Of a stretch of 64,000 nt of DNA, positions 3,742 through 43,958 are shown piece by piece. The stretch is from Pirellulales bacterium (GTDB taxonomy: Bacteria; Planctomycetota; Planctomycetia; Pirellulales; PALSA-1355). The stretch is taken from assembly GCA_022844125.1 (NCBI GenBank), contig JALHMI010000014.1, forward strand, positions 131,298 to 195,297. The letters are read 5' to 3'. Position 1 is the first letter of the stretch. Every line of letters begins with the position of its first letter. A program made the position numbers and the translations under genes. A model generated the notes under the pieces. The model did not search any database. It was not told where the DNA came from and saw only the letters and a list, made by a program, of their open reading frames with translations.

Positions 3742-4719
3742 ATGGCCCACAACCTAGCGACGACAAATGGCAGAACGGCGATGGCCTTTTACGGCGAGAC
3801 GCCGTGGCACGATCTCGGAACTCGGCTCGATGAGCCCGCAACTGCCGCGGAAGCGATCTCAGCCGCAGGGCTAGACTACGACGTCGAGCTGACAAGCATC
3901 ATCACGACCGATGGCATCCCGGTACCGCAGAAGCGAGCGGTCGTCCGAACCGATTCGAGTGACGTCATCGGCGTTGTCGGGAACGGATATGTCCCCGTGC
4001 AGAACCGAGAGTGCTTCGGCTTCCTGGACGCCATCGTGGCTGAGGGTGGCTTGCGGTATCACACGGCCGGAGCACTGGGCAGAGGCGAACGAATCTGGCT
4101 TCTCGCAAAACTGCCCGAACAGATTCGAGTGAAGAACAGTGTCGACGTCGTGGACAAGTTCTTGTTGCTCTCCAACACGCACGATGGGACCGCTGCTCTG
4201 CGAGTGTTCTTCACGCCGATCCGTGTCGTGTGCCAGAACACGCTGAACATGGCCGAGGTCCGAGGCCGAAGTGACGGCATTTCGATCCTGCACCGGGGCG
4301 ACCTCGTGAGCAAGATTCGCGAAGCCCAGCGAGTGCTCGGCCTGGCAGAGCAATTCTACGATGATGCTGCTGCGAAGATCGATCATCTGGCTAACGTCTA
4401 TCCGACATCGGAGCAGCTCAAGAACTTCTTCGAGTCGCTCTACCCGGACCCGATTCTGTCGGAGAACCGTCGGGCGAAGAATGTTCGCGACAAACTCTTC
4501 AATCTCTTCGAGTCGGGAATGGGGCAGGACATGCCCGAGGTCAAGCACACAGCTTGGGCGGCCTTCAACGCGGTGACCGAGTACGTCGATCATCTGCGTC
4601 CATCGCGAGGCCGTGACGATCGTGAACGATCCGGTCGCCGGCTGGATTCCGCCTGGTTCGGATCGGGTGCCAAGCTCAAGGCTCGTGCCTGGAACCTGGC
4701 TCTCACGATGGCGAACTAA
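3742..4719 (+). CDS. DUF932 / TIGR03299 phage-plasmid-like protein
   Basis: The N-terminus (NGRTAMAFYGETPWHDLGTRL) and the segments GERIWLLAKLP, LLLSNTHDGTAALRVFFTPIRVVCQNTL match the family as I know it from ICEs and plasmids. AAGGAG RBS upstream. Confidence 0.85.
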   Translation: MAHNLATTNGRTAMAFYGETPWHDLGTRLDEPATAAEAISAAGLDYDVELTSIITTDGIPVPQKRAVVRTDSSDVIGVVGNGYVPVQNRECFGFLDAIVAEGGLRYHTAGALGRGERIWLLAKLPEQIRVKNSVDVVDKFLLLSNTHDGTAALRVFFTPIRVVCQNTLNMAEVRGRSDGISILHRGDLVSKIREAQRVLGLAEQFYDDAAAKIDHLANVYPTSEQLKNFFESLYPDPILSENRRAKNVRDKLFNLFESGMGQDMPEVKHTAWAAFNAVTEYVDHLRPSRGRDDRERSGRRLDSAWFGSGAKLKARAWNLALTMAN

Positions 4720-5464: not shown

Positions 5465-6295
5465 GTGATCACCCGCCCTCACTGGTCGTATAGCCAGCTC
5501 TCACAGTTCATGCGATGCCCGCTTCAGTACTACTTTGAACGGATCGCCAAGTTGCCTAAGCCCTTCCTGCCAAGCGGATTGGTGCTGGGCACAGCAGTCC
5601 ATCAAGCTCTCGCAGAATATCACCGTCGGCTGCAATCGAAGAAGTCAGCAACGCGAGATGAAGTTCGAACTGCATTTCTGGAAGCATGGAATGATGCGGA
5701 GAAAGAAAAGCCGGTTCAGTTCCGCAACGGCGAGAACCGCCAAAAGGCACAGGACCAGGGTATCGCACTTCTGGAACTCTATCAGGAGCAGCCACCTCCC
5801 AAGCAGATTGTGGCAATCGAGCAATCGATGATGGTCCCGCTGGAGAACAGTCGCGGCCAGTTTCTGGAGAAGCCACTGGTGGCAGTGGTCGATTTGCTGT
5901 ATCGCGAAAGCCAGGAACTCGTGGTCAATGAGTTCAAAACCAGCGGTCGACGATTCGCAGATTCTGAAGTCGACAACGGCCTGCAAGCCAGTGCCTACGT
6001 TCATGCAGTCTTGCAGCGGTACGACGAGCGGGCTCGCGTTCGGTACACGATTCTCGTGAAGTCCAAGTCGCCGACCATCCAGAACCTGGAAACAGCTCGA
6101 ACGGACTCGGACCTGACTCGACTGGGAGATATCGCGGAAGCCATTGAGCGAGCAATCGCATCCGAAGTGTTTTATCCGGTTGAAACCCCGATGAACTGCT
6201 CGGGATGCCCATTCTTCCGTCCCTGCCGAGACTGGACGGCGAAATCGCACTCCAGAGCAAACTCAAATGGCCATGCTGTAGGTGAAACATGCTGA
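5465..6295 (+). CDS. PD-(D/E)XK nuclease, Cas4/AddB-like with a Cys cluster
   Basis: N-terminal SYSQLSQFMRCPLQYYF, then VDLLY...VVNEFKTS (D...ExK), QASAYVHA, and C-terminal CSGCPFFRPC (one N-terminal Cys plus three C-terminal Cys). Confidence 0.8.
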   Translation: MITRPHWSYSQLSQFMRCPLQYYFERIAKLPKPFLPSGLVLGTAVHQALAEYHRRLQSKKSATRDEVRTAFLEAWNDAEKEKPVQFRNGENRQKAQDQGIALLELYQEQPPPKQIVAIEQSMMVPLENSRGQFLEKPLVAVVDLLYRESQELVVNEFKTSGRRFADSEVDNGLQASAYVHAVLQRYDERARVRYTILVKSKSPTIQNLETARTDSDLTRLGDIAEAIERAIASEVFYPVETPMNCSGCPFFRPCRDWTAKSHSRANSNGHAVGETC

Positions 6296-8080: not shown

Positions 8081-9106
8081 ATGGCATCCAAGAAACTACC
8101 CAAGGCGACCCGTAGCGATTCCGAGCGTCGCGTCCGGCAGGCCGACCGGCTGGCAAGGCTTTTCCGCGTTCTAGAACGCATCCAAGGGCGAGGTCGTTGG
8201 ACAGCTAAGGACCTGGCAGCAGATGAGGAATGTTCTGAGCGAACCATCTTCCGTACTCTGGAGTCACTCGAACTAGCCGGAGTGCCCTGGTATTTCGACG
8301 ATATCGACAAGTGCTACCGGGTCCGACCGGACTACCGATTTCCGACACTGAATTTATCGCCGCCTGAACTCGTTGATCAGGTGACGGCTTCTGCAATTGC
8401 AACCGCAGCCTCCGCCACACGCACTTCACTGGCAACGACTAAGAAGCTGAGGGCCGCAGCATCAGAAGACACGAGTCAATTGCTCAACGATGCGGAGACG
8501 CTGATTTCCATCCTCGGGCTGCAGATGGCGGAGCATGGAAAGCATCATGCGATGATTCAGACAGCACAACGTGCCCTGATCGATCGAACGCAGCTCACCG
8601 GTCGATACAAGAGTCCATATGATTCAAAAACCAAGCAACTGCGCCTGACGCCGTATCGACTTTGCCTGATCAAGCAGGCTTGGTACCTGATTGCGGTCCC
8701 CGCTGGGGCAACCGAGCCCCATACCTACCGAATCCCTCGGTTCAAGTCGCTTCGCCAAATCGAGGGATCGGCCCAGATTCCGGAAGATTTCGATTTGAAA
8801 GCATACTTCGGTGATGCCTGGGCAGTTTATCGGGGCGAGACGAAGTTCGACATCGAGATTCATTTCTCCAAGGAATCGGCGGACGTCGTGACGGAAACCA
8901 CCTGGCACCCGACACAGCGAATGGGCCGCAATCGCGACGGATCAGTACGTATGAAGTTCCGAGTGGATGGGCTGGAAGAGATCGTCCACTGGGTACTCGG
9001 TTGGTCGGGAAGTGCCAGAATTGTGAAGCCCGATGAGTTGCGCATCCTCGTTCTCGCACAGCTGAAGACGGCATACTCGCTGAATTTCGGTGATCGATCT
9101 CCATGA
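8081..9106 (+). CDS. HTH-WYL-WCX transcriptional regulator (BrxR/CapW/PafBC-like architecture)
   Basis: N-terminal wHTH (RLARLFRVLERIQGRGRWTAKDLAADEECSERTIFRTLESLELAGVP). Central WYL signature (LTPYRLCLIKQAWYLIAV). C-terminal extension (VHWVLGWSGSARIVKPDELR). Confidence 0.85.
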   Translation: MASKKLPKATRSDSERRVRQADRLARLFRVLERIQGRGRWTAKDLAADEECSERTIFRTLESLELAGVPWYFDDIDKCYRVRPDYRFPTLNLSPPELVDQVTASAIATAASATRTSLATTKKLRAAASEDTSQLLNDAETLISILGLQMAEHGKHHAMIQTAQRALIDRTQLTGRYKSPYDSKTKQLRLTPYRLCLIKQAWYLIAVPAGATEPHTYRIPRFKSLRQIEGSAQIPEDFDLKAYFGDAWAVYRGETKFDIEIHFSKESADVVTETTWHPTQRMGRNRDGSVRMKFRVDGLEEIVHWVLGWSGSARIVKPDELRILVLAQLKTAYSLNFGDRSP

Positions 9107-10982: not shown

Positions 10983-11564
10983 ATGGCAATGTTCGAGTTC
11001 ATATGCCCAAGATGTCACCGCGCATGCACGGTCGGGCCACTTGGAACCTGCCAGAATATTCTCGACAGTGGAAGGGCATGCGACTTTGAGTTTGCGATCG
11101 AGATGGAAGACGGTAATCGCACCTATAAAGTGAAGTATCTAAAACACACGAATCCCCCAGCCGGCATGCCTGCGGATGGTGCTTATTCGTGGGTGGCGAA
11201 TTCCGGCGAATACGCGATTAATCAGCAACACTTGCTGATGTCCGACTCGCTGTACTTGGACCCAAAAAACAACTATTTGTTCTTGTGGGCGACACCTAGC
11301 GGCGCCCAACCGATTGCTAAGGTGATATATGCCGATCAGGGCACCGTTCAGTCGGCAAGTGGCGTAATCATGCCGCTGAACTCGAAGCCCCAGAATCTTC
11401 ACCATCACTACGGCAATCACGAGCCATATTTTCAGAAAATCTCTGAGAGTTCAAATCTGCGCGTAGAACTACGGCAAGGCGGAAGTGGCGAATACCGCGT
11501 CTATGAAGGGAACACGTTAATCTATACGTACGATCCCGTCGCACAATCTGGTCGCCAAATTTGA
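10983..11564 (+). CDS. hypothetical protein with an N-terminal Zn-ribbon-like CxxC pair
   Basis: ATG at 10983 (MAMFEFICPRCHRACTVGPLGTC). The ORF track starts at GTG 10935. Confidence 0.5.
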   Translation: MAMFEFICPRCHRACTVGPLGTCQNILDSGRACDFEFAIEMEDGNRTYKVKYLKHTNPPAGMPADGAYSWVANSGEYAINQQHLLMSDSLYLDPKNNYLFLWATPSGAQPIAKVIYADQGTVQSASGVIMPLNSKPQNLHHHYGNHEPYFQKISESSNLRVELRQGGSGEYRVYEGNTLIYTYDPVAQSGRQI

Positions 11565-13086
11565 GGAAGGTCACCTATTATATGGCGGCCTGGCCTACAT
11601 CCGTGACCTCTCTCCGGCCCAGCGTGAACGCACGCTTAAAAAGACGCTCCGCGCCTTCGCGCTCTTCTGCAAGCAGAACTTCGACTTTGACCTGTACGAA
11701 TATCAGCGGGAGATAGCCGAGGCGTGCCTGTCCTCGCTTCTGGTCGAACCAACGGACGTCTTCATCAAGATCAGCCGCCAATCCGGGAAGACGGAAACCG
11801 TCACGCTCCTGCTGCGGTTCCTGATCATCTTCTACGCGTTGCTCGTCGGTGATCCGCTGATGGCGGGCATCGCCTCTCCGAAGGGAGAACAGGCAAAGAC
11901 CGACACCGATCGCATCAAGAAGTCCCTGACCGAACTTCGCGATTCGTGGCAGGTCGAGGATCGGGAGTTCAATGCGTACACGATCCGGGCGTATCGGTTC
12001 GATAAGCTCTCCGCAGAAATCTTCACGTTCTCGCTGGCGCCGTCAACGAACAACGAATCGAAGACGCTCAACCTGCTCGTCGTCGAAGAGGCACACAAGA
12101 CGGATGATCAGAAGCGCTCGGATCAACTGGATCCGATGTTGGCTTCCACAGGCGGCGTCCGATGGATGATCGGCGTCGGTTGCACGCGCGTGTGCGACTT
12201 TAAGAAGGGCTGTGACGGGGAACTGCCGCACAGCAAGCCCATTGTCTGCAACGTGGACCGCGTGATCGCGGATCGGCGGAAGAAGTTCGAAGAGACGGGC
12301 AATCCAAAGCATCTCGAATACGAGAAGGCGTTTCAGAAGCTCCTCCGCCAGTTCGGGCGAGAGAACCCCGAGATCAAGCGCAACTTCTACCTTGAAGACA
12401 CAATCGAGGCCGGGAACTTCGTCTCCCGTGAGCGACTGCTCTCCTGTGGTCGGCCGATGAGCAAGCCGATCAGGATGGATCGACTGGGCCTCGGAATCGA
12501 CTGGGCACGCCGGAGCGACAATACGTGGGCGTTCCTGTCGAACGAATACAACGATGTCGCGGACATGCTCAAAGTGCCGCATGTCCCCTACGAGCAGCAA
12601 TGCGAGATGATCGACGCCTGGTTGAAGGAGAAGCGGAAATGCCAGGTGTTGAAGGAGGACGGATCGGTAATCGAGGAGGAGTTCACGTATCTGGAGCGTA
12701 TTCTGGCCGTCCGCGGCGACTCCACGGGCGGTGCTGGCGATGCGCCGATGGAGATGCTGGCCGCCAAAACCGCTCTTCCGATCGACGAAGAGAGCCACTT
12801 CGTCTTCACGACCCAGTCAAAGAACACCCTGTACCTTCACTTTGAAGCGGCCCTGTTCCGCGATCCCGAGGACGAGCTGCGGTTCAGCTACCCCGCGGAT
12901 TATCCGCTGGCTGGCGAATTCGAGGAGCAGACGATCGCGCTCGAGCGTGAGTACGTGAAAGAAGGCGAGTACCTGAGCGTCCATCATCCCGATAAGCCAG
13001 ATGCAAGGGACGATGCGCCGGACGGCTGCGGTCTGTCACTCGTGGCGGCGAGCAACGCGGAGGTAGGGCAGATCATTGTGTTGTAG
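11521..13086 (+). CDS. terL: phage terminase large subunit (ATPase plus RNase H-like nuclease)
   Basis: Walker A ISRQSGKTE at 11773-11796. Walker B-like LLVVEEAHK. Nuclease-domain start LGLGIDWARRSDNTW. The frame is open from 11521, but the first ATG/GTG/TTG is TTG 11839, downstream of the P-loop. Confidence 0.8.
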   Translation, partial: SIRTIPSHNLVAKFEEGHLLYGGLAYIRDLSPAQRERTLKKTLRAFALFCKQNFDFDLYEYQREIAEACLSSLLVEPTDVFIKISRQSGKTETVTLLLRFLIIFYALLVGDPLMAGIASPKGEQAKTDTDRIKKSLTELRDSWQVEDREFNAYTIRAYRFDKLSAEIFTFSLAPSTNNESKTLNLLVVEEAHKTDDQKRSDQLDPMLASTGGVRWMIGVGCTRVCDFKKGCDGELPHSKPIVCNVDRVIADRRKKFEETGNPKHLEYEKAFQKLLRQFGRENPEIKRNFYLEDTIEAGNFVSRERLLSCGRPMSKPIRMDRLGLGIDWARRSDNTWAFLSNEYNDVADMLKVPHVPYEQQCEMIDAWLKEKRKCQVLKEDGSVIEEEFTYLERILAVRGDSTGGAGDAPMEMLAAKTALPIDEESHFVFTTQSKNTLYLHFEAALFRDPEDELRFSYPADYPLAGEFEEQTIALEREYVKEGEYLSVHHPDKPDARDDAPDGCGLSLVAASNAEVGQIIVL

Positions 13087-13259: not shown

Positions 13260-14393
13260 ATGAGTGAGATGGGAGAGACGCTCTTAGCAATTGCAAACCA
13301 ATTGGAAGAAGTCGCGAAGAAACTGGAAACCTCAGAGGTTCAGTCGTCAATACAGCAACTAATGGAAGGCGTTACAAGAGCCACGAGTGCGTTCTGCGGC
13401 TCCTGGATTGGCTACCACTCGAGGGTGTACTACAACGGATTGAATCCGCCGCCCGCGGGCGCGACGTTTAATCCCGAGTATGGCCTGGTGCACATGAGCT
13501 ACAATCGCGGGACCGAGGGGGAATGGGTCGAGTTCCAATACGACGAGATATTTGGCGTTCTCAAAGGGCATACCGATGGGCTGAGCTTTGATGCCATGTC
13601 CGATATCGCCGAAGAGGTTCGCGCGGAAGCACAGCGACTTAGGGAGGAACTGCTCTCCTGTTTGACGGCCCTCAGCGCACAGTCAGATGACGAATATATC
13701 AAGCGGATGCTCAAGGAGGCGACAAGCACGACGCCCTTGAGCAGCTCCGACTTTATCGGTTACGTGCAGCCCAAGGGCTCTTTCTTTTCGCGCGATTCGA
13801 GAGCATACGCGGCCGGAATACAAGTGCCACCTCATATCAGCCTGGCGTCTCAGGTACAGACAATCACCGGGCAAATCGTCTTCGCAAACTCCCTCGCCTC
13901 AACAGCTCGTCACACTGCCTCGCATTTGAATAAGCGGAATGCGGCAAGTCGAGCCTTGAATGCAGTCGGGACCAAGGTCTTCATAGGGCATGGTCGCTCA
14001 CCACTGTGGCGCGATGTCAAAGACTTCGTGCAGGATCGATTGAATCTGGAATGGGATGAGTTCAACCGTGTTCCGGTTGCTGGCGTCACAAATATTGCCC
14101 GGCTCTCAGAGATGCTGAAGGACGCCGGGATCGCCCTGGTGATCATGACCGCAGAAGATGAGATGAAGGATGGAGTGGTTCGCGCAAGGGAGAATGTGGT
14201 CCACGAAGTTGGCCTCTTTCAAGGAAAACTAGGATTTACCAAAGCGATCGTTCTCCTCGAAGAAGGGTGCCAAGAGTTCTCGAACATCCAAGGGCTTGGC
14301 CAGATTCGTTTTCCGAAGGGGAACATCAAGGCTGTCTTTGAGGACATTCGGCTAGTGTTGGAACGAGAAGGAATGGTGGAGGAGGCTGACTAA
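13260..14393 (+). CDS. protein with a C-terminal TIR-like domain of the PF10137 (CAP12/PycTIR) type and an unknown N-terminal ~240-aa domain
   Basis: VFIGHGRSPLWRDVKDF...ALVIMTAEDEM...RARENVVHEVGLFQGKLGFTKAIVLLEEG...GLGQIRFP follows the family motif order. AAGGGGG RBS before ATG 13260. Confidence 0.75.
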   Translation: MSEMGETLLAIANQLEEVAKKLETSEVQSSIQQLMEGVTRATSAFCGSWIGYHSRVYYNGLNPPPAGATFNPEYGLVHMSYNRGTEGEWVEFQYDEIFGVLKGHTDGLSFDAMSDIAEEVRAEAQRLREELLSCLTALSAQSDDEYIKRMLKEATSTTPLSSSDFIGYVQPKGSFFSRDSRAYAAGIQVPPHISLASQVQTITGQIVFANSLASTARHTASHLNKRNAASRALNAVGTKVFIGHGRSPLWRDVKDFVQDRLNLEWDEFNRVPVAGVTNIARLSEMLKDAGIALVIMTAEDEMKDGVVRARENVVHEVGLFQGKLGFTKAIVLLEEGCQEFSNIQGLGQIRFPKGNIKAVFEDIRLVLEREGMVEEAD

Positions 14394-15892
14394 TGGCAAT
14401 CAAGGAGCAGGCAATGTACATGGTCGCCGTCTTCCCGTACTTGAGGACGAGCAACGTCGCGCGGTTCCGTGGCCTTGAGTTCCGGCCCTCAGACGACTTG
14501 GAGGGCCTAGGAGAAGACGAGAAAGCGGATGTCGAACAGATTCGAACGCTGTTCTACCTAAGGAATGGTTTTCGTTTGTCGAGCGTGACGTACGCGATGC
14601 TGCGCTTTAGCGATGACGAGGAGAAAGAAGATCGATTGCGGCGGCTGTCGGAGGCGCATCAACTGATCACATACCTGTACTCCGCGCCGGATCAAGTTCG
14701 CTGCGACGTGTTCCTTCATCAGGAGCACTCTGCCGTCTTTACTTTTGAGAAACATCCTGTGTGCACGTTGTTGGTACGGCCTGACGAACGTGTGGTTGTC
14801 GACGAAGGACAACCTCTACCGGAACCTGACCATAGGCACGAGATTCCTGGCTGGAACGTCACTCGTAACCTTCGGGAAACGTTCTATGGCGCTCCGGAGT
14901 TGCAAATCTATCCGACGCTTGGATGGATGGGCCTGAATCGAAGTCAGGATCTCTACTTGCACTTTATTGACGGACCGTTGTCAGGCAAGAACTGGCACGT
15001 AGTCGAGTTGCTCCGATCTTGGTATCCGCGGACACGTGGGCTCGATCGAGTAAAGGGTGGGATCTCTTGGTACAACCGGAGCGTATCGCAGATCGAAGAC
15101 CCCGACATGGAGATTGTCAGCTTGGCCGTTGCGTTTGAAAGCCTGCTAGGACTTGATCGGGCGAACAGGACAACCGATCGGTTTGTCGAATCAGTGCAAA
15201 CGCTGATCGGAAAAGAGGATCGCCTGGCACTATGGCTAAGACAGTTCTACAACGCACGATCTTCAGTCGTGCATACGGGCCAGCCTGAAGAGGTTATGTT
15301 TCTTCCCACTAAAGACGAGACGCCCTATCGGTCATTGGTTGATTATGGGCGACATATCTTCCGAGCTTGCGTCGAAACTGTGCTCCAAGGGGCGGCTATG
15401 GCCGACGCGATTGGGATCGTCGAGCTTCTGACGACCAATCGAGAACGCTTTGACAGTATTTGCAAGACGATGGCCGGGGCCGGCACTCCAGAATGGAGGC
15501 TCGCGGAAATTGCCCGAGACGTGGACGGTATCGAGCGCAACGAATACATCGTGGACAGATCGTTGAAGGTGGAGGTCCAGATGTGTGCCGTTCAGAAGGT
15601 TGCCGAGGCATACCTTGCGACGAACCCCGATGAACAGCAGGTCATACTAGACGCCTTGGCAAAAGTCGCAGCGATTAGAACCCGAGATGATCAGCTCAAA
15701 ACGTTGGGCGCAATCAAGGAACTGGATGATGCCTTCAAGAACGTCGGGCACGTTGAGGGGATTCGTTGGCCAAACATCCATTACACGGTCCGAAAGCTCG
15801 TGGAGACGGTTTGGAGGCGCTTTACCTTCGTCCACTGGCATCTTTTGGATGAGAAACGGAAGGCAGTGGAGAAAAGTGGCGGTAACGCATGA
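14393..15892 (+). CDS. HEPN-like protein (Rx4H motif), unknown N-terminal domain
   Basis: The start overlaps the upstream stop (TAATG). FYNARSSVVHTG gives R-x4-H in a helical C-terminal half, preceded by LAVAFESLLGLD. No other motif recognised. Confidence 0.6.
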   Translation: MAIKEQAMYMVAVFPYLRTSNVARFRGLEFRPSDDLEGLGEDEKADVEQIRTLFYLRNGFRLSSVTYAMLRFSDDEEKEDRLRRLSEAHQLITYLYSAPDQVRCDVFLHQEHSAVFTFEKHPVCTLLVRPDERVVVDEGQPLPEPDHRHEIPGWNVTRNLRETFYGAPELQIYPTLGWMGLNRSQDLYLHFIDGPLSGKNWHVVELLRSWYPRTRGLDRVKGGISWYNRSVSQIEDPDMEIVSLAVAFESLLGLDRANRTTDRFVESVQTLIGKEDRLALWLRQFYNARSSVVHTGQPEEVMFLPTKDETPYRSLVDYGRHIFRACVETVLQGAAMADAIGIVELLTTNRERFDSICKTMAGAGTPEWRLAEIARDVDGIERNEYIVDRSLKVEVQMCAVQKVAEAYLATNPDEQQVILDALAKVAAIRTRDDQLKTLGAIKELDDAFKNVGHVEGIRWPNIHYTVRKLVETVWRRFTFVHWHLLDEKRKAVEKSGGNA

Positions 15893-16097: not shown

Positions 16098-16733
16098 ATG
16101 GGGGCTACACTCACTCAACAAATCGATGAGACGCTTGATCAGTTGGACAACGTTGAGTCCCTGTGCGATCTATTTTTTGGCAGAAGGCAATTTACAATTT
16201 ATAAGAACATCGCTGGATCGCTCCGCCTCTTGCTGACGGGCTCCAGTGGTCATGTCGGACTTGTGGAGACGGTACTTCCGGCTGGCGGCCTCTGGCGACT
16301 ACGGAAAATCCCCGACCCAATGACTCCTGCCGACATGCTCGTTCTTCCTGCCGCGGTTCTAGTCGAGAGTGGCGACGCCAAGGTGCGAGTAGGAAATGGA
16401 ACGGTGACCGTCAAAGAGCTTAACGTGAAAGGGGGGGCCGTTTCAGCGATGGACATCGGAGAGATGTTCGAGTCATCGTCTCCCGCACTACCGATTCGGG
16501 ACTGGCTACAGCAACCGTTTCTGCGCCCCACATGGACAATCAGGAGCTTCATCTCTGCCGTTGCGAACAAGGACGGTGGTGCGCACCTCGATCCCAACCC
16601 AACAATTGAAGCAATGCAGCGATGGGGACATCTGCACTGGCACTTAACGGCCGCATTGGCTCGCAGTGTTCTTCCGCAAGTCCGCGAACAACTGACGGCG
16701 ACGTATCCTAGCCACGTTCGTCCGGAGCGGTAG
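16098..16733 (+). CDS. hypothetical protein
   Basis: 211 codons with a purine-rich RBS. Only one notable motif: AVANKDGGAHLDPNP near the C-terminus. Confidence 0.6.
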   Translation: MGATLTQQIDETLDQLDNVESLCDLFFGRRQFTIYKNIAGSLRLLLTGSSGHVGLVETVLPAGGLWRLRKIPDPMTPADMLVLPAAVLVESGDAKVRVGNGTVTVKELNVKGGAVSAMDIGEMFESSSPALPIRDWLQQPFLRPTWTIRSFISAVANKDGGAHLDPNPTIEAMQRWGHLHWHLTAALARSVLPQVREQLTATYPSHVRPER

Positions 16734-16852
16734 GCACAAATCCGTCAAGCCAATGTGCTGCGTCCGCCCGATGACTGTTTTGCGCGTGCCAGTCATCGGA
16801 ACTTTCAACATCAAGATATAGACGCCGCGGAAACGTTACTGAAGGATGATAA

Positions 16853-17398
16853 GTGATGGTTCAAATCAAGTCAGGCAACCCTCGCTTCCGCTCGAAGGAG
16901 GACATAGCGGAGGACATCGCGTTCATCCTGCGTGCTCCCGTGAAGTACGGGACAAAGTTCGCGGTCTTAGCCGAAGCGATGTGGGTGTGGACTGAGTCGA
17001 CCGGAAAATATGAGGGGTGTCCTTACTGGACGCCGCTGGCTATGGCCGTGTATGCCGTCAATCGGATGCGAAAGCGGGGCAAGTATCACGGACTGCGGCA
17101 CGAGCACGTTGTTCCGAAGCGAGTCGTGATGGACATGCTTGAATCGCTTGAAACACCCACGCCCGAGGCAGTGCATGCAATTTGTGAGAAGTTTCTGCAC
17201 GCGGTAGTGGTTACCGTTGAGGAGGATTCTTTCCTGAATCTCGACTACCAAAGCACGATGCCGGCTGAGTTTGAAGATCTGACGAGCGAGCATTATCACG
17301 ATCCATGGTTGCGCTACCGGCGTTGCAGTATTCAATGGATGACGGAATCCGAGGCGCGCGAACGGCTCGTGAGAGCAGCTCCGCACCTTGCGTTGTGA
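16853..17398 (+). CDS. hypothetical protein (possible His-Me/HNH-like 'HEHVVPK' motif)
   Basis: 181 codons. GTG 16853 / ATG 16856 with GAAGGA upstream. The motif GLRHEHVVPKRVV is the only hint of a nuclease. Confidence 0.55.
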   Translation: MMVQIKSGNPRFRSKEDIAEDIAFILRAPVKYGTKFAVLAEAMWVWTESTGKYEGCPYWTPLAMAVYAVNRMRKRGKYHGLRHEHVVPKRVVMDMLESLETPTPEAVHAICEKFLHAVVVTVEEDSFLNLDYQSTMPAEFEDLTSEHYHDPWLRYRRCSIQWMTESEARERLVRAAPHLAL

Positions 17399-18119: not shown

Positions 18120-18326
18120 ATGACGAAGATTGTCAATTGCAGGCGATGCGGCGATTGCTTCTATGAAGGCAGGAACCCGAACTGCATTTCTGAGATCACC
18201 TACGATGAGTCGTGCTGCCCGAACTGCAATATCTGGGCATACTACCACACCTTTGAGATGCCGAATCAGGTGATGACACACCCCGCGCAGCCGTTTGATC
18301 GTGCAATCGAATTCACCCCGACATGA
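18120..18326 (+). CDS. small Zn-ribbon protein
   Basis: MTKIVNCRRCGDCF...CCPNCN gives two CxxC pairs. First gene of an overlapping chain. Confidence 0.45.
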   Translation: MTKIVNCRRCGDCFYEGRNPNCISEITYDESCCPNCNIWAYYHTFEMPNQVMTHPAQPFDRAIEFTPT

Positions 18327-18481
18327 AGCTCCGCCGTCCGACAGTCAAAGGCCCTCTCTTCGATCGCTGGACGGACCTCGCCGTAAAGCTCGGCTACGGT
18401 CGACGCGGCGGTCGCTCGAAGCTCCTCGATCTCCTCTTGGCGTATGCGGAGAGGCATTCTGATCTATTCCGCAAACGCTGA
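18323..18481 (+). CDS. 52-aa ribbon-helix-helix-like protein (below the ORF-track length cutoff)
   Basis: My translation: MKLRRPTVKGPLFDRWTDLAVKLGYGRRGGRSKLLDLLLAYAERHSDLFRKR. ATGA overlap with the upstream gene and TGATG overlap with the downstream gene. Confidence 0.45.
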   Translation: MKLRRPTVKGPLFDRWTDLAVKLGYGRRGGRSKLLDLLLAYAERHSDLFRKR

Positions 18482-18869: not shown

Positions 18870-19153
18870 GGTCGATCGCGAATCCTCACTGGGATCACGT
18901 CGAAGAACACGAGCCGCCGAGGCCACGGCGGGTGATCAAACGCAAGAAGCCGCACTATCGTGGTTCGAAGTCGGGCTATATGGGTGTGAGTCACGCTGCA
19001 CACAGCAAGCGGAAGCCGTGGAAAGCGTATCATCGGAAAAGCGGTCAATACATCACGATCGGCTACTTCACGACGAAGGAGGCTGCGGCGAGGGCGTACA
19101 ATCGCGAGGCTCGACGACTGTTTGGGCGGGGGACGTTTCTGAACCCTGTGTGA
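18866..19153 (+). CDS. AP2/ERF-type DNA-binding domain protein
   Basis: YRGSKSGYMGVSH...KPWKAYHRKSGQYITIGYFTTKEAAARAYNREARRLFG matches the AP2 pattern seen in phage HNH-AP2 proteins. Confidence 0.75.
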   Translation: MRSIANPHWDHVEEHEPPRPRRVIKRKKPHYRGSKSGYMGVSHAAHSKRKPWKAYHRKSGQYITIGYFTTKEAAARAYNREARRLFGRGTFLNPV

Positions 19154-20035
19154 TCGGCGGTGGCGTCAGCACTTTCGGCACGACTTCACGCTCGAGAATC
19201 CGATCTTCCGCAGTGATCAGGACGTAGTGTATGGCGCCATTGTCCCGGGCAAACTCAATTGCCTCGTCGCGCATGTTTTGCATGAGCGACCATTCCTTTT
19301 CGTCCCAATAGAACGCCTCTCGGCTTGAGACTTCACAGTGAGCGGCGGTTCCACACATGCGCTTAATCATCGACGACCCTCGGTGACTGGAATGGAAGGG
19401 GAGCAAACAAGCATAGCTCAAAGCTTCCCGATTGGCGTTCGAGCTTCGATGCCGTGTACAATCCATCTCGTAAATGCCTTCAGTCTTCTCGCGTCTCGGC
19501 AAAGCAGCTTCTGCTTTTGGTCGAGTCGTTCGTGGTCTGCCTCTGCCGGACCACATGTTCTACGACTATCGCGGCGTTCCGGCATTCTTCAAGCCGAAGG
19601 AGTCGCTCGAAGCGTTCGATCACAATCCGTGGCTCGGTGCGGCGGTCCGACAGTTCGCGCACGAACTGGCTTGGACCCGTCGCTGGTCACCTTGTATGCT
19701 TGGTAAGCAAGCCCAGTCTATTTGTTCGGATAGCCTCACTGACCCGCTCCTGTCAGTGACGTCGGGTATTTATAGTACCCGGCGGCTTGAGGCTACTCAG
19801 ACGATGCAGGCACCGCTCAGGTGCAGCGAGTCAACTAACGATCGCAGTTTGATGATTGCAGTTTCGGAGCGGCGGGGCTCGGCATTGGCCCGCAGCACAA
19901 CCGTCCTCCAGCAATCCATCAACTGATCGACGATCCATGAGCTGACGTTAAGCATGGGAACACCCAATGCGTCTGTACGCCCCAAGCCGCCAACTTTTTG
20001 TCATTCAAGTACTACTTCATTCCTGAGCAAGGAGC

Positions 20036-21408: not shown

Positions 21409-21556
21409 AATATTTGGCCTACTGTATGTGCTGCGAAGCTGGCTGGGCTTCATGGAGGAATGCGAGCTAGCGGAAAAACTTGACGAGGAGCTGGCAATAG
21501 AGCGTCACCTGGAAACTTTGAATGAGGATGAACTTCGCAAACTACTCAATGACTAG
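21398..21556 (+). CDS. 52-aa hypothetical protein (below the ORF-track cutoff)
   Basis: My translation: MGYEIFGLLYVLRSWLGFMEECELAEKLDEELAIERHLETLNEDELRKLLND. Overlaps the upstream gene by 11 nt and the downstream ATG 21549 by 8 nt. Confidence 0.4.
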   Translation: MGYEIFGLLYVLRSWLGFMEECELAEKLDEELAIERHLETLNEDELRKLLND

Positions 21557-22556
21557 CCCCCCACTGCCATACGGCATCAACGATCTGTGCCCAGAACTAT
21601 GCGTCACCCCTGGCCCACCCAAGCGCATTCGCTGCTTCGTGAAGGGTTGCAGCCATATGCTCCGGCCCCCCACGAGGCGAGGCGGTGGCGATGTCTGCCC
21701 TGACCATGGAATTCGCTGCCATTCCTCAGGCACCTACTCCTATGCAGACGTACGCCGGAATCTGATTGTCGACGCCGACCTCTTCGCGACTCGTGTGGTG
21801 GGGCATCCCTTCAAGTACGAAAGCGACCGCTTCGGCTCCGAGAATTCCGAGGACGCTCTGAGCTGGAATGTGTTTCGCTCGTTGCAGAGGGAAGGTCAGC
21901 TGCACAAAGTCGCACAGCTGACCACCGGCGTAGTGAGTGCCGAGGAACCCATCCTCTATCTCTGGGGGCTGCGAACTTCGGACGACAGTTTTGAACCGTG
22001 GGATTTTCTGATCGCTGCCCGAGAGCGGTTCGAGCAGAACCTTCCGGTGAAACGGCCGCTCACGGAACCGGACATCGCTCTGCATCTACCAGGAGAATAC
22101 TTGATTCTGATCGAAGCCAAGTTCACCAGTCCGAACTCGTACTATGTCGATGGGCCTCGGCAGAACGCCGTATCGCTCACGAAGTCCGAACTGCTCGACA
22201 TCTATTGGGATCCTTGCGTCCGATCGCTCGACCGCGAGAAGGCGAGGCAGGCTGAGCGAGTCCATTACCAGCTTTGGCGGAACCTAGTTTTTGCGGAATG
22301 GATGGCCAGCCAGGATTCACGCATGACGAGTCCGTACCTAGTTAGCCTGACACGCTCTGGACATGAGCAGGGGAGTTGCTCGCAGTTTCGCGAGCTGGCA
22401 GATGCCTCCAGTGACGACCGTTTTCAACATCGCAGTTGGGAGGAAGTCACTGTCAGTTGCTGCAGTACCGCCGGCGTGCTCGATCGCCTGGCCGCATATT
22501 GCAAGGCCAAGACCGCGCATCTAAAACGAGCCTTTTATCTGGTTGGAGATGCATAG
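21549..22556 (+). CDS. Zn-ribbon plus PD-(D/E)XK-like protein, paralogue family 2 of 3
   Basis: CFVKGCSHML...VCPDHGIRCH, then SEDALSWNVFRSL and PDIALHLPGEYLILIEAKFTSPN (D...ExK). The ORF track starts at 21522; ATG 21549 fits the overlap pattern. Confidence 0.6.
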   Translation: MTSPPLPYGINDLCPELCVTPGPPKRIRCFVKGCSHMLRPPTRRGGGDVCPDHGIRCHSSGTYSYADVRRNLIVDADLFATRVVGHPFKYESDRFGSENSEDALSWNVFRSLQREGQLHKVAQLTTGVVSAEEPILYLWGLRTSDDSFEPWDFLIAARERFEQNLPVKRPLTEPDIALHLPGEYLILIEAKFTSPNSYYVDGPRQNAVSLTKSELLDIYWDPCVRSLDREKARQAERVHYQLWRNLVFAEWMASQDSRMTSPYLVSLTRSGHEQGSCSQFRELADASSDDRFQHRSWEEVTVSCCSTAGVLDRLAAYCKAKTAHLKRAFYLVGDA

Positions 22557-33380: not shown

Positions 33381-33773
33381 CTACGAAGCGGCCTCAGGGT
33401 CTACGGATTGTCGGAGCAACGGCTGACCAGCGACCTCGCTCGTGCACTCGGCGCAAGGCGCGAGGGGCCGCAGGTCAGCCGTGTTCACGGGAAAGAACTG
33501 GCCCCTGCTGTCGCGGCAGAGCCACACCCTGCCATCACGAGTGAAGTCGGCTTCGACCTCAACCGGCGTGCCGCCAATCAAGGCCACATAGCGCTGGCCA
33601 CTCAGGACACGCTCCGAGTGCAGCTGACCATCCATGTCGGCCTCCGTCAGTGTGAATACGTTTGAACTGCGAGCATGAGCGAGTAGGAGCACCTGGGGGG
33701 CGTGCGTATTTGTTAAATCAACGTGACTGCCCAGAACCCGCCACGGTTGCACGAAGATTTTTCGCGAGTACAT
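33381..33773 (-). CDS. hypothetical protein
   Basis: Part of ORF 33381-33830, with ATG candidates at 33773 and 33635. The beta-rich segment RYVALIGGTPVEVEADFTRDGRVWLCRDSRGQFFPV looks protein-like. The start is uncertain. Confidence 0.35.
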   Translation of the reverse strand: MYSRKIFVQPWRVLGSHVDLTNTHAPQVLLLAHARSSNVFTLTEADMDGQLHSERVLSGQRYVALIGGTPVEVEADFTRDGRVWLCRDSRGQFFPVNTADLRPLAPCAECTSEVAGQPLLRQSVDPEAAS

Positions 33774-33793
33774 TGATCCGTCGGAGTACTTGT

Positions 33794-36700
33794 ATGAATG
33801 CTGCTTCCGCTTCACGCGTTTCCGGCACACCGCCTCACGCTAACACTCCGGGTGACACCACCAAGGAGCATCTGCAGCACTCATTCGCCACAGCGAAAGA
33901 GCTAGATGTCGCTTGTGCCGCTTTCGAGCTTGCGCTCGCTCGCGGAGAACGGCCCAATATCGATGCGATCGTCGAGAGTGCCAGTGAATCGCTTCGAACG
34001 CGATTGTTTCGAGAGCTATTGGCGATTGAAATGGAGTTTCGCGCAGGCCGGGGCGAGACGCCGTCGCTCAATGAGTATCGCCAGCGGTTTAGCACGCAGC
34101 TGCAGCTGGTCAAGTTCCTCTATCTCGAGCGTTTCACGCCAGCCGTGATTGGCGATTTTCCTGTGCAACGATTGGTCGGTCGAGGCGGGTTCGGCCATGT
34201 CTACCAAGCGTGGGACCAGAAACTTTCCCGCACGGTGGCGATCAAGGTGTTCCGCAGAGATCCCGATCGGCCGGGACCGCCGGGTAGCTTGCTCGTGGAA
34301 GCTCGATCAGCTGCGCAACTGCGTCATCCAGGCGTTGTGACGGTTCATGCGATTCTCCCAGATAGCGACGGCGATGAATTTTTGGTTCTCGAATACGTGG
34401 ACGGTTGTTCGCTCGAAGAGTTGCTCCGGAGCAGCCAACTTTCTTCTCGCGAAGCGGCAAGTCTCATTCTTGCCGTAGTTCAAGCCCTGCAGCACGCCCA
34501 TCAACATGGGCTGGTCCATCGCGACTTGAAACCTGCCAACATCTTACTCGAGCAAGGATGCCGCCCACGTGTGACGGACTTCGGACTGGCACTGCAACTT
34601 ACCGAAGTGCGACGCTCACCGCTCATTACTGGGACCTTGTCCTACATGTCTCCAGAGCAGGCCAATGGAGAGTCGCATCGTTTGGATTCGAGGACTGACG
34701 TGTGGGCAGTCGGCGTAGTGCTTTACCGAATGCTCACCGGAAAGCTTCCATTTTCCGCTCCGGACTACCGCGCTTTGCTGAACTCGATTCAATATGACGA
34801 GCCGGTCGATCCGCTACTCATAAATGGCGAGATTGCTCCCGAGCTGGCTCGCGTGACAATGCGTTGCCTTTCCAAGCGAATGAGCGATCGCTACCAAACC
34901 GCCGCCGAACTCGCCGAAGACTTGACGGCGTTTCTTGCAGGCAACACGTCTGCTGCTCCGACGGTCGTCGGCGACAAGCTCGTTGATCGGCAAATCGCGG
35001 TCGTACCTAAAGGGCTGCGCTCCTTCGATATTTCTGATCGAGACTTCTATCTTCAGCTCGTTCCTGGAGCACGGGATCGACATGGAGTTCCGCAAGGGGT
35101 GCGTTTTTGGGAAGAACGCCTCGGTGATACTGGTAGCACGCAGACATTTCGGGTGGGAATGCTGTATGGCCCAAGTGGTTGTGGCAAGTCGTCCCTCGTC
35201 CGTGCAGGTATTCTGCCTCGACTGCCCGGCAGCGTCCGGCGGATCCTAATCGAGTGTACGCACGACCAAACTGAGGCACGTCTACTGGCTGAGTTGCGAC
35301 GTCATTTCCCGGAACTGGCCACGACCGGTTCGCTGTCGGACGCGCTTGCCGAATTACGCGAGGGAACCTTTCTGGCTCCTGGCGAGAAGCTCGTATTAGC
35401 GATTGACCAGTTTGAGCAATGGCTTCATGGTTGGCAGCCAGAGCACTCGACTTCCTTTGTCGAGGCGCTTAGGCAGTGTGACGGCGGGCGCGTACAGGCG
35501 ATTCTCTTAGTTCGAGATGACTTTTGGATGCAGACGACGCGATTCTTCAAAGCATTGGATGTTCCTCTGCTCGAAGGTGTCAATGCAGCTGCAGTTGACT
35601 TGTTCGACTCTAGCCATGCAAAGAGAGTATTAGCCGCCTTCGGAGATGCGTACGGCCGACTCTCGAGCGACCAGGCCCGGAGGTCGGTCGAGCAAGAGCG
35701 GTTTCTTGATTCTGCGGTTCGAGAGTTGGCCGAAGACGGCTGGATCGTCCCCATTCGACTCTGCATCTTTTCGGAAATGGTGAAGTCACTACCATGGGTT
35801 CCGCAGACCTTAAAAAAGGTCGGTGGGGCTGAGGGCATCGGAGTAACCTTTCTAGAGGAAGTCTTCAGCGGCAGATCGGCTTCGCCCCTTCATCGCTTGC
35901 ATCGAAGGGCAGCTCGTGCGGTCCTGGAACAGCTATTGCCCCCAGCTGGCTCAGAGATTCGGGGGCATCTTAAGTCCGAATCAGAACTACTGATCGCGTC
36001 AGGGTACGCGCAATCACCTCCTGAGTTTACGGATTTACTTCGGTGCCTTGATCAAGAGCTAAGACTCATAACTCCCTCGGAATCAGGCGATTTAAATCGG
36101 GTGTCGTCTGGTGGTCTCAATGAAAAGTTTTATCAATTGACGCACGACTTCCTCGTTGATGCAATTCGGCGCTGGCTGAATCGCGATCGGTCGCGTACGG
36201 TGATCGGACGAGCAGAACTCCGGCTTGCCGAGCGATCGCAAGCCTACGCGACGCGCCAGGATGATCGGCAACTACCGGCCTGGTGGGAATGGGTGTGGAT
36301 TGCGGCGCTGACTCAGCAACGTCGATGGACACACCGCGATCGCGAGCTTATGCGGGCAGCAAGCCGCAAGTACGCGCTTCGCATTACCGGCGTAGTTGGT
36401 GCGGTGTTACTGCTTATCTTCGTCGCCTATCATCAGTATGGAACGCTGCGTGCCCAGGGACTGGTGCAAGCCTTGGCGACTAGCGATCCTGTTGGGGTCC
36501 CGGCTTCCGTCGACCAGCTGGGCTCTTTTGCCTGGTGGGTAAAGCCGGAGGTCCAACGCCGGCTTAGTGAAGACGGAGTTTCTGACGAAGAGCGAATACG
36601 CCTTGAGCTCGGACAGTTCTCACTGGGTCAGATTCCATCCCAGGAACTTGCGAAGCGACTTTTAGGCGCGAGCCCTCCGGTGGCTATTTCGATTGTGCAG

Positions 36701-38404
36701 GTACTCAATAAGTACAACGGAATGGCGGTGATTTCTGAAGTGCTCGAAGCAATAGCACGGGATAAGAGTCAATCTGAGCCACAGCGATTGCGAGCAATAA
36801 TCGCCCTAGCAAGTACCGACGGGCCAGCTAACGATCTTCGGTGGCATGAGCTTGCACCAATTGCGGCCGATATGGCCGTGCGAGATATCAGCGAGAATCC
36901 TAACCACTATCAACCTTGGCAGGCTGGCCTACGCTTCAAAAAGCAGTTCTTGCTCGAGCCCTTGACAAGCATGTTTGCAGATCGCAGTCTGACCCGGCAG
37001 GGACGATTGCTCGCCACCCAGTTGTTGCTCGACTACGCCGCGAATGATCATCAAAGGCTCTTAGAATTAGCTCTAGGTGCCGAACCATGGCAATGCCCTC
37101 CTCTGTTTCGCGCATTGCAGCCGTATCGATTGGCGATCTTACCAACCCTAAACAATGTGGCATCGATTGAACCCACTGGTGGCGCCGAATTGCACGAGAA
37201 GAAACAGGTGGCCGCGCGAAGTGCAAATGCTATCGCTCTACTGCATTTTTTGGGGGAAAGCCACAGCGTTTGGCCCGCACTTACCCATTCATCGGACCCA
37301 ATTCGCCGTTCGTACATGCTGCGGCACTTCTCTGAGGTCGCGATACCGTTCAATTGGGTCGAACGATTGCCGCAGTTGGACGCTGGCGGCCGGCAAGCGG
37401 TCATACTAGCGATGGGGTTTCAGGCGAACACTTTCGAGAAGCCCGAGCAACGGCATGTGCTACAGCAGACTTTACTGGAGCGATTTCGCACAGATCCTGA
37501 TGCAGGCGTTCACAGTGCAGCTGAGTGGTCGCTCAGGCGGTTAGGCATGCTCGAGCCCCTGGAGAAAGCTCGTCAAGAACTAGCGGAACATGGACTGCAG
37601 CAGGGATTTGGTTGGTATGTAACAAAAAGCGGGATCGGCATGGTCCTTGTTCGCCCGCAAGGGAAAGTGTGGCTCGGTTCGCCGAAGCATGAGATTGGGC
37701 ACGAGTCCGATGAGGCACCATGGGAGGTCGATCAGAACTGGTGCTATGCGATTTCCGCCACAGAGATCACCCAGCGACAATACCACAAGCTGGTTCCGGA
37801 GTATCGAGATCATCTCAATGAGTACGCCTCAACGGACGACTCGCCGGTGAATTCAGTGACTTGGCTAGACACCGCAAAGTTCTGCCGGCTGCTCAGCGAG
37901 GCCGAGGGAATTCCCGATGAGGAAATGGTTATTCCACCTATCGAAAAGTTGAAAAAGGGACCATATCCGGATATCCTCAGCCACGTTGGCTATCGACTAC
38001 CCACGGAGTGCGAGTGGGAAGTAGCTTGCCGGTCGGGCTCAGTTACGTCGCGCTTCTTCGGGGATGATCCAGAATTACTGCCTCTCTTTGCCTGTTACGT
38101 TGCGAATTTTAACGGAACGTCAGCTCCAGTGGGGTCCTACTTGCCAAATGCCTGGGGCTGCTTCGACACACTTGGGAACGTGGCTGAGTGGTGCTACAAC
38201 GTTTTCCAGGACAATCCCGCTGAGCGTTCAGAGCGGCATATTAGCCCTCCGGGATATGGGCCAGCTTATCGTTTCGCCGTTCGTGGCAATGAATACTTTG
38301 CGAGCCCCCGAATTCTTCGTGTCGCGAATCGTAGGGAAGGGCGATCCGAGGAGTTTATTCATTCACGTGGATTCCGTATCGCGCAGACTGTGAAACTCCC
38401 GTAG
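33794..38404 (+). CDS. multidomain Ser/Thr protein kinase: kinase, P-loop NTPase (STAND-like), TM segment, HEAT-like repeats, FGE-sulfatase (SUMF1) domain
   Basis: GRGGFGHVYQA...VAIK, HRDLKPANILL, VTDFGLA and SYMSPEQ. P-loop YGPSGCGKSSLVRAGILPRL (about 35169-35195). TM segment ITGVVGAVLLLIFVAY. C-terminal YRLPTECEWEVACR...GNVAEWCY...RGFRIAQ. ATG 33794 chosen over the upstream alternative start. Confidence 0.9.
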   Translation: MNAASASRVSGTPPHANTPGDTTKEHLQHSFATAKELDVACAAFELALARGERPNIDAIVESASESLRTRLFRELLAIEMEFRAGRGETPSLNEYRQRFSTQLQLVKFLYLERFTPAVIGDFPVQRLVGRGGFGHVYQAWDQKLSRTVAIKVFRRDPDRPGPPGSLLVEARSAAQLRHPGVVTVHAILPDSDGDEFLVLEYVDGCSLEELLRSSQLSSREAASLILAVVQALQHAHQHGLVHRDLKPANILLEQGCRPRVTDFGLALQLTEVRRSPLITGTLSYMSPEQANGESHRLDSRTDVWAVGVVLYRMLTGKLPFSAPDYRALLNSIQYDEPVDPLLINGEIAPELARVTMRCLSKRMSDRYQTAAELAEDLTAFLAGNTSAAPTVVGDKLVDRQIAVVPKGLRSFDISDRDFYLQLVPGARDRHGVPQGVRFWEERLGDTGSTQTFRVGMLYGPSGCGKSSLVRAGILPRLPGSVRRILIECTHDQTEARLLAELRRHFPELATTGSLSDALAELREGTFLAPGEKLVLAIDQFEQWLHGWQPEHSTSFVEALRQCDGGRVQAILLVRDDFWMQTTRFFKALDVPLLEGVNAAAVDLFDSSHAKRVLAAFGDAYGRLSSDQARRSVEQERFLDSAVRELAEDGWIVPIRLCIFSEMVKSLPWVPQTLKKVGGAEGIGVTFLEEVFSGRSASPLHRLHRRAARAVLEQLLPPAGSEIRGHLKSESELLIASGYAQSPPEFTDLLRCLDQELRLITPSESGDLNRVSSGGLNEKFYQLTHDFLVDAIRRWLNRDRSRTVIGRAELRLAERSQAYATRQDDRQLPAWWEWVWIAALTQQRRWTHRDRELMRAASRKYALRITGVVGAVLLLIFVAYHQYGTLRAQGLVQALATSDPVGVPASVDQLGSFAWWVKPEVQRRLSEDGVSDEERIRLELGQFSLGQIPSQELAKRLLGASPPVAISIVQVLNKYNGMAVISEVLEAIARDKSQSEPQRLRAIIALASTDGPANDLRWHELAPIAADMAVRDISENPNHYQPWQAGLRFKKQFLLEPLTSMFADRSLTRQGRLLATQLLLDYAANDHQRLLELALGAEPWQCPPLFRALQPYRLAILPTLNNVASIEPTGGAELHEKKQVAARSANAIALLHFLGESHSVWPALTHSSDPIRRSYMLRHFSEVAIPFNWVERLPQLDAGGRQAVILAMGFQANTFEKPEQRHVLQQTLLERFRTDPDAGVHSAAEWSLRRLGMLEPLEKARQELAEHGLQQGFGWYVTKSGIGMVLVRPQGKVWLGSPKHEIGHESDEAPWEVDQNWCYAISATEITQRQYHKLVPEYRDHLNEYASTDDSPVNSVTWLDTAKFCRLLSEAEGIPDEEMVIPPIEKLKKGPYPDILSHVGYRLPTECEWEVACRSGSVTSRFFGDDPELLPLFACYVANFNGTSAPVGSYLPNAWGCFDTLGNVAEWCYNVFQDNPAERSERHISPPGYGPAYRFAVRGNEYFASPRILRVANRREGRSEEFIHSRGFRIAQTVKLP

Positions 38405-43708: not shown

Positions 43709-43958
43709 GGGTTTACGTGCGCGGAGTAACCGTTGCGCAAGCGGCTGACTACGCGGTTAGTGCCCCCGCGCAGCACCTCCTACTCCCGGAGCACAACGCC
43801 TCCGATTCTGTTTTTGAGGTCAGGCGAGTCCTAAGCCTCAGCCAGACAAACTCCGAACAAAATGCTTGGTACTCACCCGAACAGAGTATATAAAGCACCA
43901 CATTGGCGTGGATGTCGTATTTCTCCGCCTCCTTATGGTCGCACACGAGGTCCGGACC

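Follow-up and report, generated by a model that had tools for sequence, protein, structure and literature searches.

The window analysed here, 64,000 nucleotides of DNA from a Pirellulales bacterium (contig JALHMI010000014.1 of assembly GCA_022844125.1, positions 131,298 to 195,297), carries two adjacent genes on its plus strand, gene A (13260-14393; 377 amino acids, aa) and gene B (14393-15892; 499 aa), which lie in phage-derived DNA downstream of the gene for a terminase large subunit (terL). Gene A encodes a TIR-like domain of the PF10137 type behind a long N-terminal domain, and gene B, which belongs to an unannotated family of ~500-aa proteins, encodes a predicted HEPN core between two domains of its own. 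An earlier note on this DNA had taken the pair for a self-contained two-gene sensor/effector module of abortive infection. We consider it likely, instead, that A and B are two unrelated and independently mobile single-protein candidates for abortive infection or defence, which stand in tandem in the cargo of a decayed prophage.

The open reading frame (ORF) of gene A, which has GAAGGGGG 6 nt 5' of its ATG, ends in the C-terminal sequence quoted in the earlier note, and the assignment of this part to PF10137 proved right. In a Pfam scan the family (CAP12/PycTIR TIR) matched residues 239-351 (13974-14312, plus strand) with an E-value (E) of 4.8e-21 and 75.4 bits, which passes the gathering cut-off of 24.7, and the match covered model positions 1-117 of 119. 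When A was aligned to the Cap12 chains 9lmq and 7un8, Glu316 (codon 14205-14207), in VVHEVGLF, paired with the Glu of the Cap12 motif VVFEFGLF, which we take to be catalytic in Cap12; Glu316 was invariant in family sets of 120 and 37 homologues. The only solved relatives of A are Cap12 and PycTIR. The first ~235 aa (13260-13964, plus strand), a putative sensor domain in which the note, too, had recognised no motif, found no match in Pfam, NCBIfam and PDB sequence searches, while the motif GSWxGYHSxVYY...PPPxGxxF...GxWxE was kept in the same 120 and 37 family members. Homologues of A exceed 6000 proteins at E<=1e-3, are full length and come from bacteria and archaea, with cyanobacteria, Acidobacteriota, Campylobacterota and Nitrososphaera among the sources; the 120 listed are ~375 aa long and 46-53% identical. 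Given more than 6000 full-length homologues and a conserved N-terminal domain that matches nothing known, gene A is, judged by its sequence, an ordinary member of a very large and uncharacterised full-length family. The high conservation and the breadth of this family suggest a sensor for a conserved cue and not for a variable phage protein.

All PADLOC matches of A fell in its C-terminal region. The best were to PDC-S35, five of whose models aligned with A (E 1.4e-15 to 2.9e-11) through their C-terminal ~140-165 positions alone, and were followed by CBASS TIR effector models and the PycTIR model, the latter at E 4.5e-9 over the TIR part only. Among phage families, phrog_16442 matched residues 173-372 of A at E 5.6e-41. 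Literature searches on PDC-S35 and COG4271 came back empty or irrelevant. Among phages A had a single and partial match, a gene of Microcystis phage vB_MaeS-yong1 (MT855965.1, 3421-3687) that is annotated 'CMP/hydroxymethyl hydrolase' and shares 54% identity with the core of the TIR-like domain of A (residues 282-370).

As Cap12 and PycTIR are the best named matches of this domain, gene A might be read as what is left of a CBASS or Pycsar operon, with the cyclase either close by or no longer present. We regard this as highly improbable. The NCBIfam Cap12 equivalogs gave 35.4 and 28.6 bits, far under their cut-off of 450, and the Pfam scan of A detected no STING, SAVED, cNMP-binding or other cyclic-oligonucleotide receptor domain. 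The same N-terminal domain recurs in thousands of full-length homologues, and in the 11 loci of the A family that we examined there was no cyclase. The earlier note had stated for the whole window that it saw no CD-NTase, cyclase, ThsA or ThsB gene; this holds for the 29 ORFs scanned with Pfam (1-40 kb) and for the eight ORFs searched with PADLOC.

Gene B was compared directly with Pfam, PADLOC, PHROGs, NCBIfam and PDB sequences without a match, and neither the IMG/VR viral contigs nor the PLSDB plasmids yielded one. Its family is nevertheless large. A profile run against 1.84 billion cluster representatives retrieved 898 with E<=1e-3, of which 279 had E<=1e-30. Almost all of them are ~500 aa long and align end to end, and where the source names them at all they are called 'hypothetical protein'; a second search with an alignment of 58 B-family sequences added neither members nor names. 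In these 58 diverse members, which are 21-35% identical to B, E249 and H294 never vary and at least 90% retain R289, and in a 32-sequence alignment of the core both R289 and H294 are invariant. The full set of invariant or nearly invariant positions among the 58 comprises E249 (in AFESLL), W281, Q284-F-Y, R289, S290, H294 and G296; R352, in the C-terminal extension, is nearly invariant as well. R289 (codon 15257-15259) and H294 (15272-15274) belong to FYNARSSVVHTG, the R-x4-H motif that the earlier note had pointed out, and E249 is encoded at 15137-15139.

An AlphaFold2 (AF2) model of B (predicted local distance difference test score 80.8, predicted template modelling score 0.77) divides the protein into three parts, all encoded on the plus strand. 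Residues 1-175 (14393-14917) form a strand-rich alpha/beta domain, a putative sensor, for which no sequence or fold match was found. Residues 217-335 (15041-15397) hold the predicted Apea-like HEPN core of four helices (237-252, 260-272, 276-295 and 315-332), with E249 on the first of them and R289 and H294 on the third in the AF2 models. Residues 337-498 (15401-15886) make up the C-terminal extension, which is all-helical in the predicted secondary structure.

Three sequence routes led from the core of B to ApeA. The consensus of the B-family core reached the Pfam model PF18739 (HEPN_Apea) at E 0.0062 and 17.4 bits, under the cut-off of 24.4. When the 32-sequence core profile was searched against all PDB sequences, the top four hits were ApeA chains, at sub-threshold E of 0.0047-0.035; in this alignment AFESLL pairs with IAIESLI and YNARSxxVHxG with YRTRNLIVHTG (YNARSSVVHTGQ / YRTRNLIVHTGK), and R289 and H294 of B come into register with R502 and H507 of Ec2ApeA. 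The R502A substitution is the catalytic mutant in the structural study of ApeA, which also reports the R-x4-H motif on the third helix (H3), where the AF2 model of B places it (bioRxiv 10.64898/2026.01.26.701840). The third route runs through a bridge protein of 295 aa, an unannotated ORF (L107:2030-2917) on the Brevibacillus laterosporus megaplasmid NZ_CP011076.1 that was found with a fragment of ApeA helix 1. It carries the compact Apea-like HEPN motif LWIALESLF...YNHRSEVVHSG, matches ApeA at E 0.0039, and is matched by the B profile in hhalign with a probability of 91.7%. Since these routes converge on one family, we think it very probable that B is a remote and compact relative of Apea-type HEPN domains, and one that stands outside the ApeA family proper, because its Glu-Arg spacing is shorter (~40 aa against ~140), its C-terminal domain is its own and the N-terminal and Mid domains of ApeA are not seen in it. 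Residues 1-200 of B had no Pfam match, and so none to ApeA_NTD1. More speculatively, and in a weak alignment, W281 of B would correspond to position 494 of Ec2ApeA, a pocket residue. DUF5557, which nine of the 58 members matched on the R-x4-H stretch (best E 3.8e-4), was set aside as uninformative; no paper on that family was found.

We turn to the question of whether A and B belong together. At 14391-14395 the sequence TAATG lets the TAA stop of gene A share one base with the ATG of gene B, as the earlier note had described, and a strong GGAGGAGG lies 8 nt 5' of this ATG. A second plausible start of B at 14414 (AAGGAG, 6 nt, ATG) would abolish the overlap, and since the starts of B relatives scatter from 0 to 7 residues on either side of the two candidate ATGs, the overlap is likely but not certain. 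No terminator-like site was seen between the genes, and promoter and terminator scans stayed at chance level. A and B are probably co-transcribed here. One-base overlaps of stop and start are common between neighbours on the same strand and are by themselves no proof of functional coupling.

The distribution of the two families speaks more directly to this. For the B family we collected 89 loci, nine by exact look-up and 80 by scanning metagenomes, which reduce to 47 non-redundant ones, and a hidden Markov model of the A family found an adjacent A-family gene in none of the 47. The closest relative of B (72% identical) comes after YdjC-like, MshEN-domain and Hsp70 genes. Clustering of the neighbours of the B family gave no recurrent partner, and among 101 genes beside B relatives that were scanned with Pfam no family occurred more than twice; the flanks included housekeeping genes (queuosine synthesis, pantoate transferase, a tRNA synthetase, signal peptidase) as well as genes of mobile or defence type (methylase, Vsr, transposases, integrase, resolvase, SIR2, TIR_2). 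In one locus (L026, with its duplicate L029) a shorter PF10137-like ORF lies two genes, or 1.8 kb, upstream of the B-family gene. Two genes of 369 and 376 aa beside B relatives (L001 and L002), similar to A in length, turned out to be unrelated to it. Conversely, none of 11 distinct A-family loci contained a B-family ORF, and the neighbours of all 11 differed, the settings including HisG/RecQ, MerR/SNF2, an inovirus-like block and a phage replication block beside a TIR_2 protein. With no co-occurrence in the 47 B loci and the 11 A loci, A and B are each a solitary unit, and their adjacency is particular to this window.

Some of the loci collected for this comparison hold arrangements of their own. 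In L105 (2470-5122), and also in L106, the A-family gene follows 74 nt past a 485-aa gene with a TIR_2 domain in a Phage_rep_O region, and in L104 it lies within an inovirus-like block with Zot, secretin and integrase genes. A metagenome-assembled genome of Poribacteria (L015, 2695-5408) has three consecutive PF10137-like ORFs, two of ~150 aa and one of 300 aa, flanked by two near-duplicate genes of ~565 aa.

If A and B were one dedicated, translationally coupled sensor/effector system, the layout of the junction (the overlap at 14391-14395, the element before B, the common strand and the uninterrupted interval) and the presence of effector-type domains on both proteins would be accounted for. 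We nevertheless judge such a system to be very unlikely, as the genes do not co-occur in the loci of either family, the closest relative of B does without A, each protein already joins a putative sensor region to an effector domain, and the start of B at 14414 would leave no overlap. The earlier note had tied its proposal of a module to synteny in other genomes, and as the two genes are not syntenic elsewhere the proposal fails. The pair might also be thought of as Thoeris-like, with the TIR protein A making a nucleotide signal and B as the HEPN effector activated by it, since small nucleotides activate ApeA-type HEPN proteins and since many types of Thoeris are defined by TIR genes with differing effector genes next to them (bioRxiv 10.64898/2025.12.03.692087). 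This we find barely credible. The TIR domain of A belongs to PF10137 and was matched by models of Cap12 and PycTIR effectors, not by those of ThsB type; Pfam scans of B gave no SLOG, Macro, SAVED, CARF or STING match; and the recurrent adjacency of TIR and effector genes that defines Thoeris is absent here, A and B being neighbours in this window only. Nothing points to a mutual dependence of the two genes, and they probably form no dedicated system together.

Several observations weigh against our reading of A and B as two solitary defence candidates. The HEPN assignment of B, as predicted, is based on sub-threshold matches: neither B nor any of its 58 relatives alone reaches a curated Pfam HEPN model above threshold, the nearest being one relative against HEPN_AbiV at E 0.046, and no PADLOC model matches B. 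A full-length B profile searched against the PDB gave no HEPN match and did not retrieve the ApeA chains. Foldseek searches of the PDB with the full B model and with its 150-aa core returned nothing at E<=0.001, and those of BFVD with the full model likewise. The hits of B in the PDB were generic helical bundles, with Las1 at rank 10 (E 1.8) and AbiF at rank 42, and ApeA entries were absent among them, in a library (to April 2026) that was not checked for ApeA entries. These results, and the often housekeeping nature of the genes beside B, would suit a protein that is no nuclease. Its E...R-x4-H motif would then belong to a generic bundle of helices that serves structure, regulation or a different enzyme activity, and B would resemble ApeA by chance or only very remotely. 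We think this unlikely, since each of three independent routes ends at the same family and brings the catalytic R and H into alignment, and since it is precisely E249, R289 and H294 that are invariant across proteins of 22-35% identity, which points to catalysis. For the earlier note's suggestion of a HEPN domain this means that the R-x4-H motif is present and conserved, that the curated HEPN models gave no match above threshold, and that a remote Apea-type HEPN domain is the most likely answer. The remaining objections concern distribution and layout. The sample on the A side is small (11 loci), housekeeping genes are frequent beside the members of both families and a defence-island signal was not demonstrated, and a sensor of phage proteins, which evolve fast, would not usually be conserved across phyla as strongly as A is. 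Finally, the 1-nt overlap, the shared strand and the interval free of terminator-like sites fit a single operon, so that some local functional cooperation of A and B may exist.

We infer the activities of the two proteins, their triggers and any protection against phages from domains, conserved residues, distribution and context. In the scheme that we propose, the N-terminal domain of A would keep the TIR-like domain off until a cue of infection arrives, upon which the latter would hydrolyse NAD+ by means of Glu316, as the related Cap12 and PycTIR effectors do, and the cell would be arrested. The HEPN core of B would dimerise and thereby build a composite RNase site from R289 and H294 in the manner of ApeA; the strand-rich N-terminal and helical C-terminal domains would gate this site on an infection cue, and cleavage of tRNA or of another RNA would then stop translation. 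Co-transcription of A and B could add up the protection that each may confer.

The surroundings of the two genes are those of a prophage that is no longer intact. The terL gene (11521-13086, plus strand), which the earlier note had placed upstream, was identified through phrog_2 (terminase large subunit; E 2.3e-12 for the extended frame 11521-13083) and through its 58-66% identity, over 11566-13080, to the TerL proteins of three IMG/VR contigs (L098-L100). The ORF as listed (11839-13086) gave no terminase match by itself, and this was resolved by extending the frame upstream, where the Q motif and the Walker A motif SRQSGKTE lie in frame before 11839, the latter aligned with that of viral TerLs. 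From 11521 to 11839 this homologous frame stays open over 106 codons with no ATG, GTG or TTG, offering ATA, ATC and CTG only, and terL is therefore either a gene with a rare start codon or a pseudogene. Gene A begins 173 nt after its end, as against the 174 nt given in the note.

The note had also placed the pair in the slot of the portal gene, and rightly so, for in L098-L100 TerL is followed directly by a gene of ~425-446 aa in the portal position. In the window this tight junction is replaced by a block of 6.4 kb that holds A, B and four or five other ORFs, after which a remnant of the portal-position gene follows (19474-19926, plus strand, 150 aa, N-terminal), whose identity as portal comes from its position only. 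In tblastn just the first ~70-134 residues of the viral gene find a counterpart here (residues ~6-134, window 19474-19785). Within the block, two ORFs of 211 and 181 aa that follow B (16098-17398, plus strand) may be further cargo genes; they had no Pfam, PADLOC or NCBIfam match, and the first matched phrog_7805 weakly (E 1.7e-4). Two small genes downstream of terL (18302-18478 and 18875-19147, the second of AP2/HNH type with phrog_99 at E 2e-12) have homologues that sit upstream of TerL in L098. No head or tail homologue was found. The terL gene that lacks a canonical start, the portal-position gene cut to ~150 aa, the rearranged small genes and the missing head and tail genes point to a prophage that is decayed and rearranged. 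No direct or inverted repeats mark an insertion at the flanks of the block. The earlier note had reported a local dip in GC from counts in lines of 60 nt, and while these counts are exact (28, 30 and 29 against 36 in terL), the dip is not significant for whole genes: A has a GC of 0.539 and B of 0.542, which is at the 14th-17th percentile of same-size windows in 1-47 kb (0.555 +/- 0.015). Only terL departs, with a GC of 0.585 and a GC at third codon positions of 0.77 against 0.62.

Elsewhere in the window we noted, upstream of the phage block, a DUF932 protein (3742-4719), a PD-(D/E)XK/Cas4-like nuclease (5465-6295) and an HTH-WYL-WCX regulator (8081-9106; PADLOC WYL, E 6.7e-28). Downstream lie an ORF of 344 aa (21522-22556) with a weak match to the restriction-endonuclease-like REase-ARP (E 3.6e-7), a protein of 1580 aa (33662-38404) that unites domains of three kinds, Ser/Thr kinase, STAND NTPase (nSTAND1) and FGE-sulfatase, and a single ORF of 5773 aa (43866-61187, plus strand), within which, near 48 kb, GC rises from ~0.55 to ~0.61.

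The practical consequence of this analysis is that the proposed new system of TIR and HEPN genes is not there, by which a wrong entry in defence catalogues is avoided. In its place stand two candidates that are easily tested, as both are one-gene constructs. The A family, very large and uncharacterised, joins a conserved N-terminal domain to a domain of the PF10137 NADase type. Pfam, PADLOC, PHROGs and NCBIfam have no entry for the B family, which is now tied, weakly but consistently, to ApeA, a protein for which activation by DNA breakdown products was not described until 2026. It may be, though we put the chance at slightly less than even, that B is the first examined member of an undescribed family of single-protein defence systems (~900 clusters at 50% identity) and that A likewise represents a large unstudied family that couples a sensor to PF10137. 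In that joint reading B would consist of a compact ApeA-like HEPN core with N- and C-terminal domains of its own, and would sense a cue other than that of ApeA. A compact relative of this kind, whose core is flanked by other domains, could reveal in what way different triggers are coupled to HEPN nucleases.

Among known systems, A shares with Cap12 (TIR-STING, CBASS) and PycTIR (Pycsar) the PF10137 domain and the invariant Glu of (V/F)E(V/F)GLF. It differs from them in having neither a STING or cyclic-nucleotide-binding domain, as judged by Pfam, nor a cyclase partner in the scanned ORFs of 1-40 kb, and in carrying its TIR-like domain at the C-terminus, behind a family-specific domain of 235 aa. 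PDC-S35 and PHROG 16442 are the best matches of A in the defence and phage libraries, respectively, and the PDC-S entries, which we take to be single-gene candidates, would fit the solitary distribution of A. Both cover only residues ~173-372 of A, with the C-terminal part of models of 231-287 positions, and leave its first ~170 residues unrepresented, so that the predicted architecture of A differs from theirs. Like the 'moron' or defence cargo of prophages, A, B and the other ORFs of the block are embedded in phage-derived DNA, between two genes that adjoin closely in intact relatives; the host prophage is not intact here, however, and the cargo was gained either by the live phage or after its decay.

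The nearest parallel to B is ApeA, a single-protein system that cuts tRNA anticodon loops and causes abortive infection, and of which Ec2ApeA structures (9hxb, 9hxi and others) are available. As in ApeA, one protein of ~500-600 aa places its HEPN domain, a putative one in B, behind an N-terminal region of another type, the acidic residue of the first helix and the R-x4-H of the third are in register (YRTRNLIVHTGK with YNARSSVVHTGQ), and the gene stands alone in variable contexts. On the other hand, the match to HEPN_Apea is sub-threshold (17.4 against 24.4 bits) and was obtained with the family consensus alone, B has no detectable similarity to the N-terminal or Mid domains of ApeA, the Glu and Arg are ~40 aa apart in B as compared with ~140 in Ec2ApeA, and the HEPN core lies in the middle of the protein, followed by a helical extension of 160 aa. 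Since the domains that flank the core of B differ from those of ApeA, B may respond to a different cue of infection.

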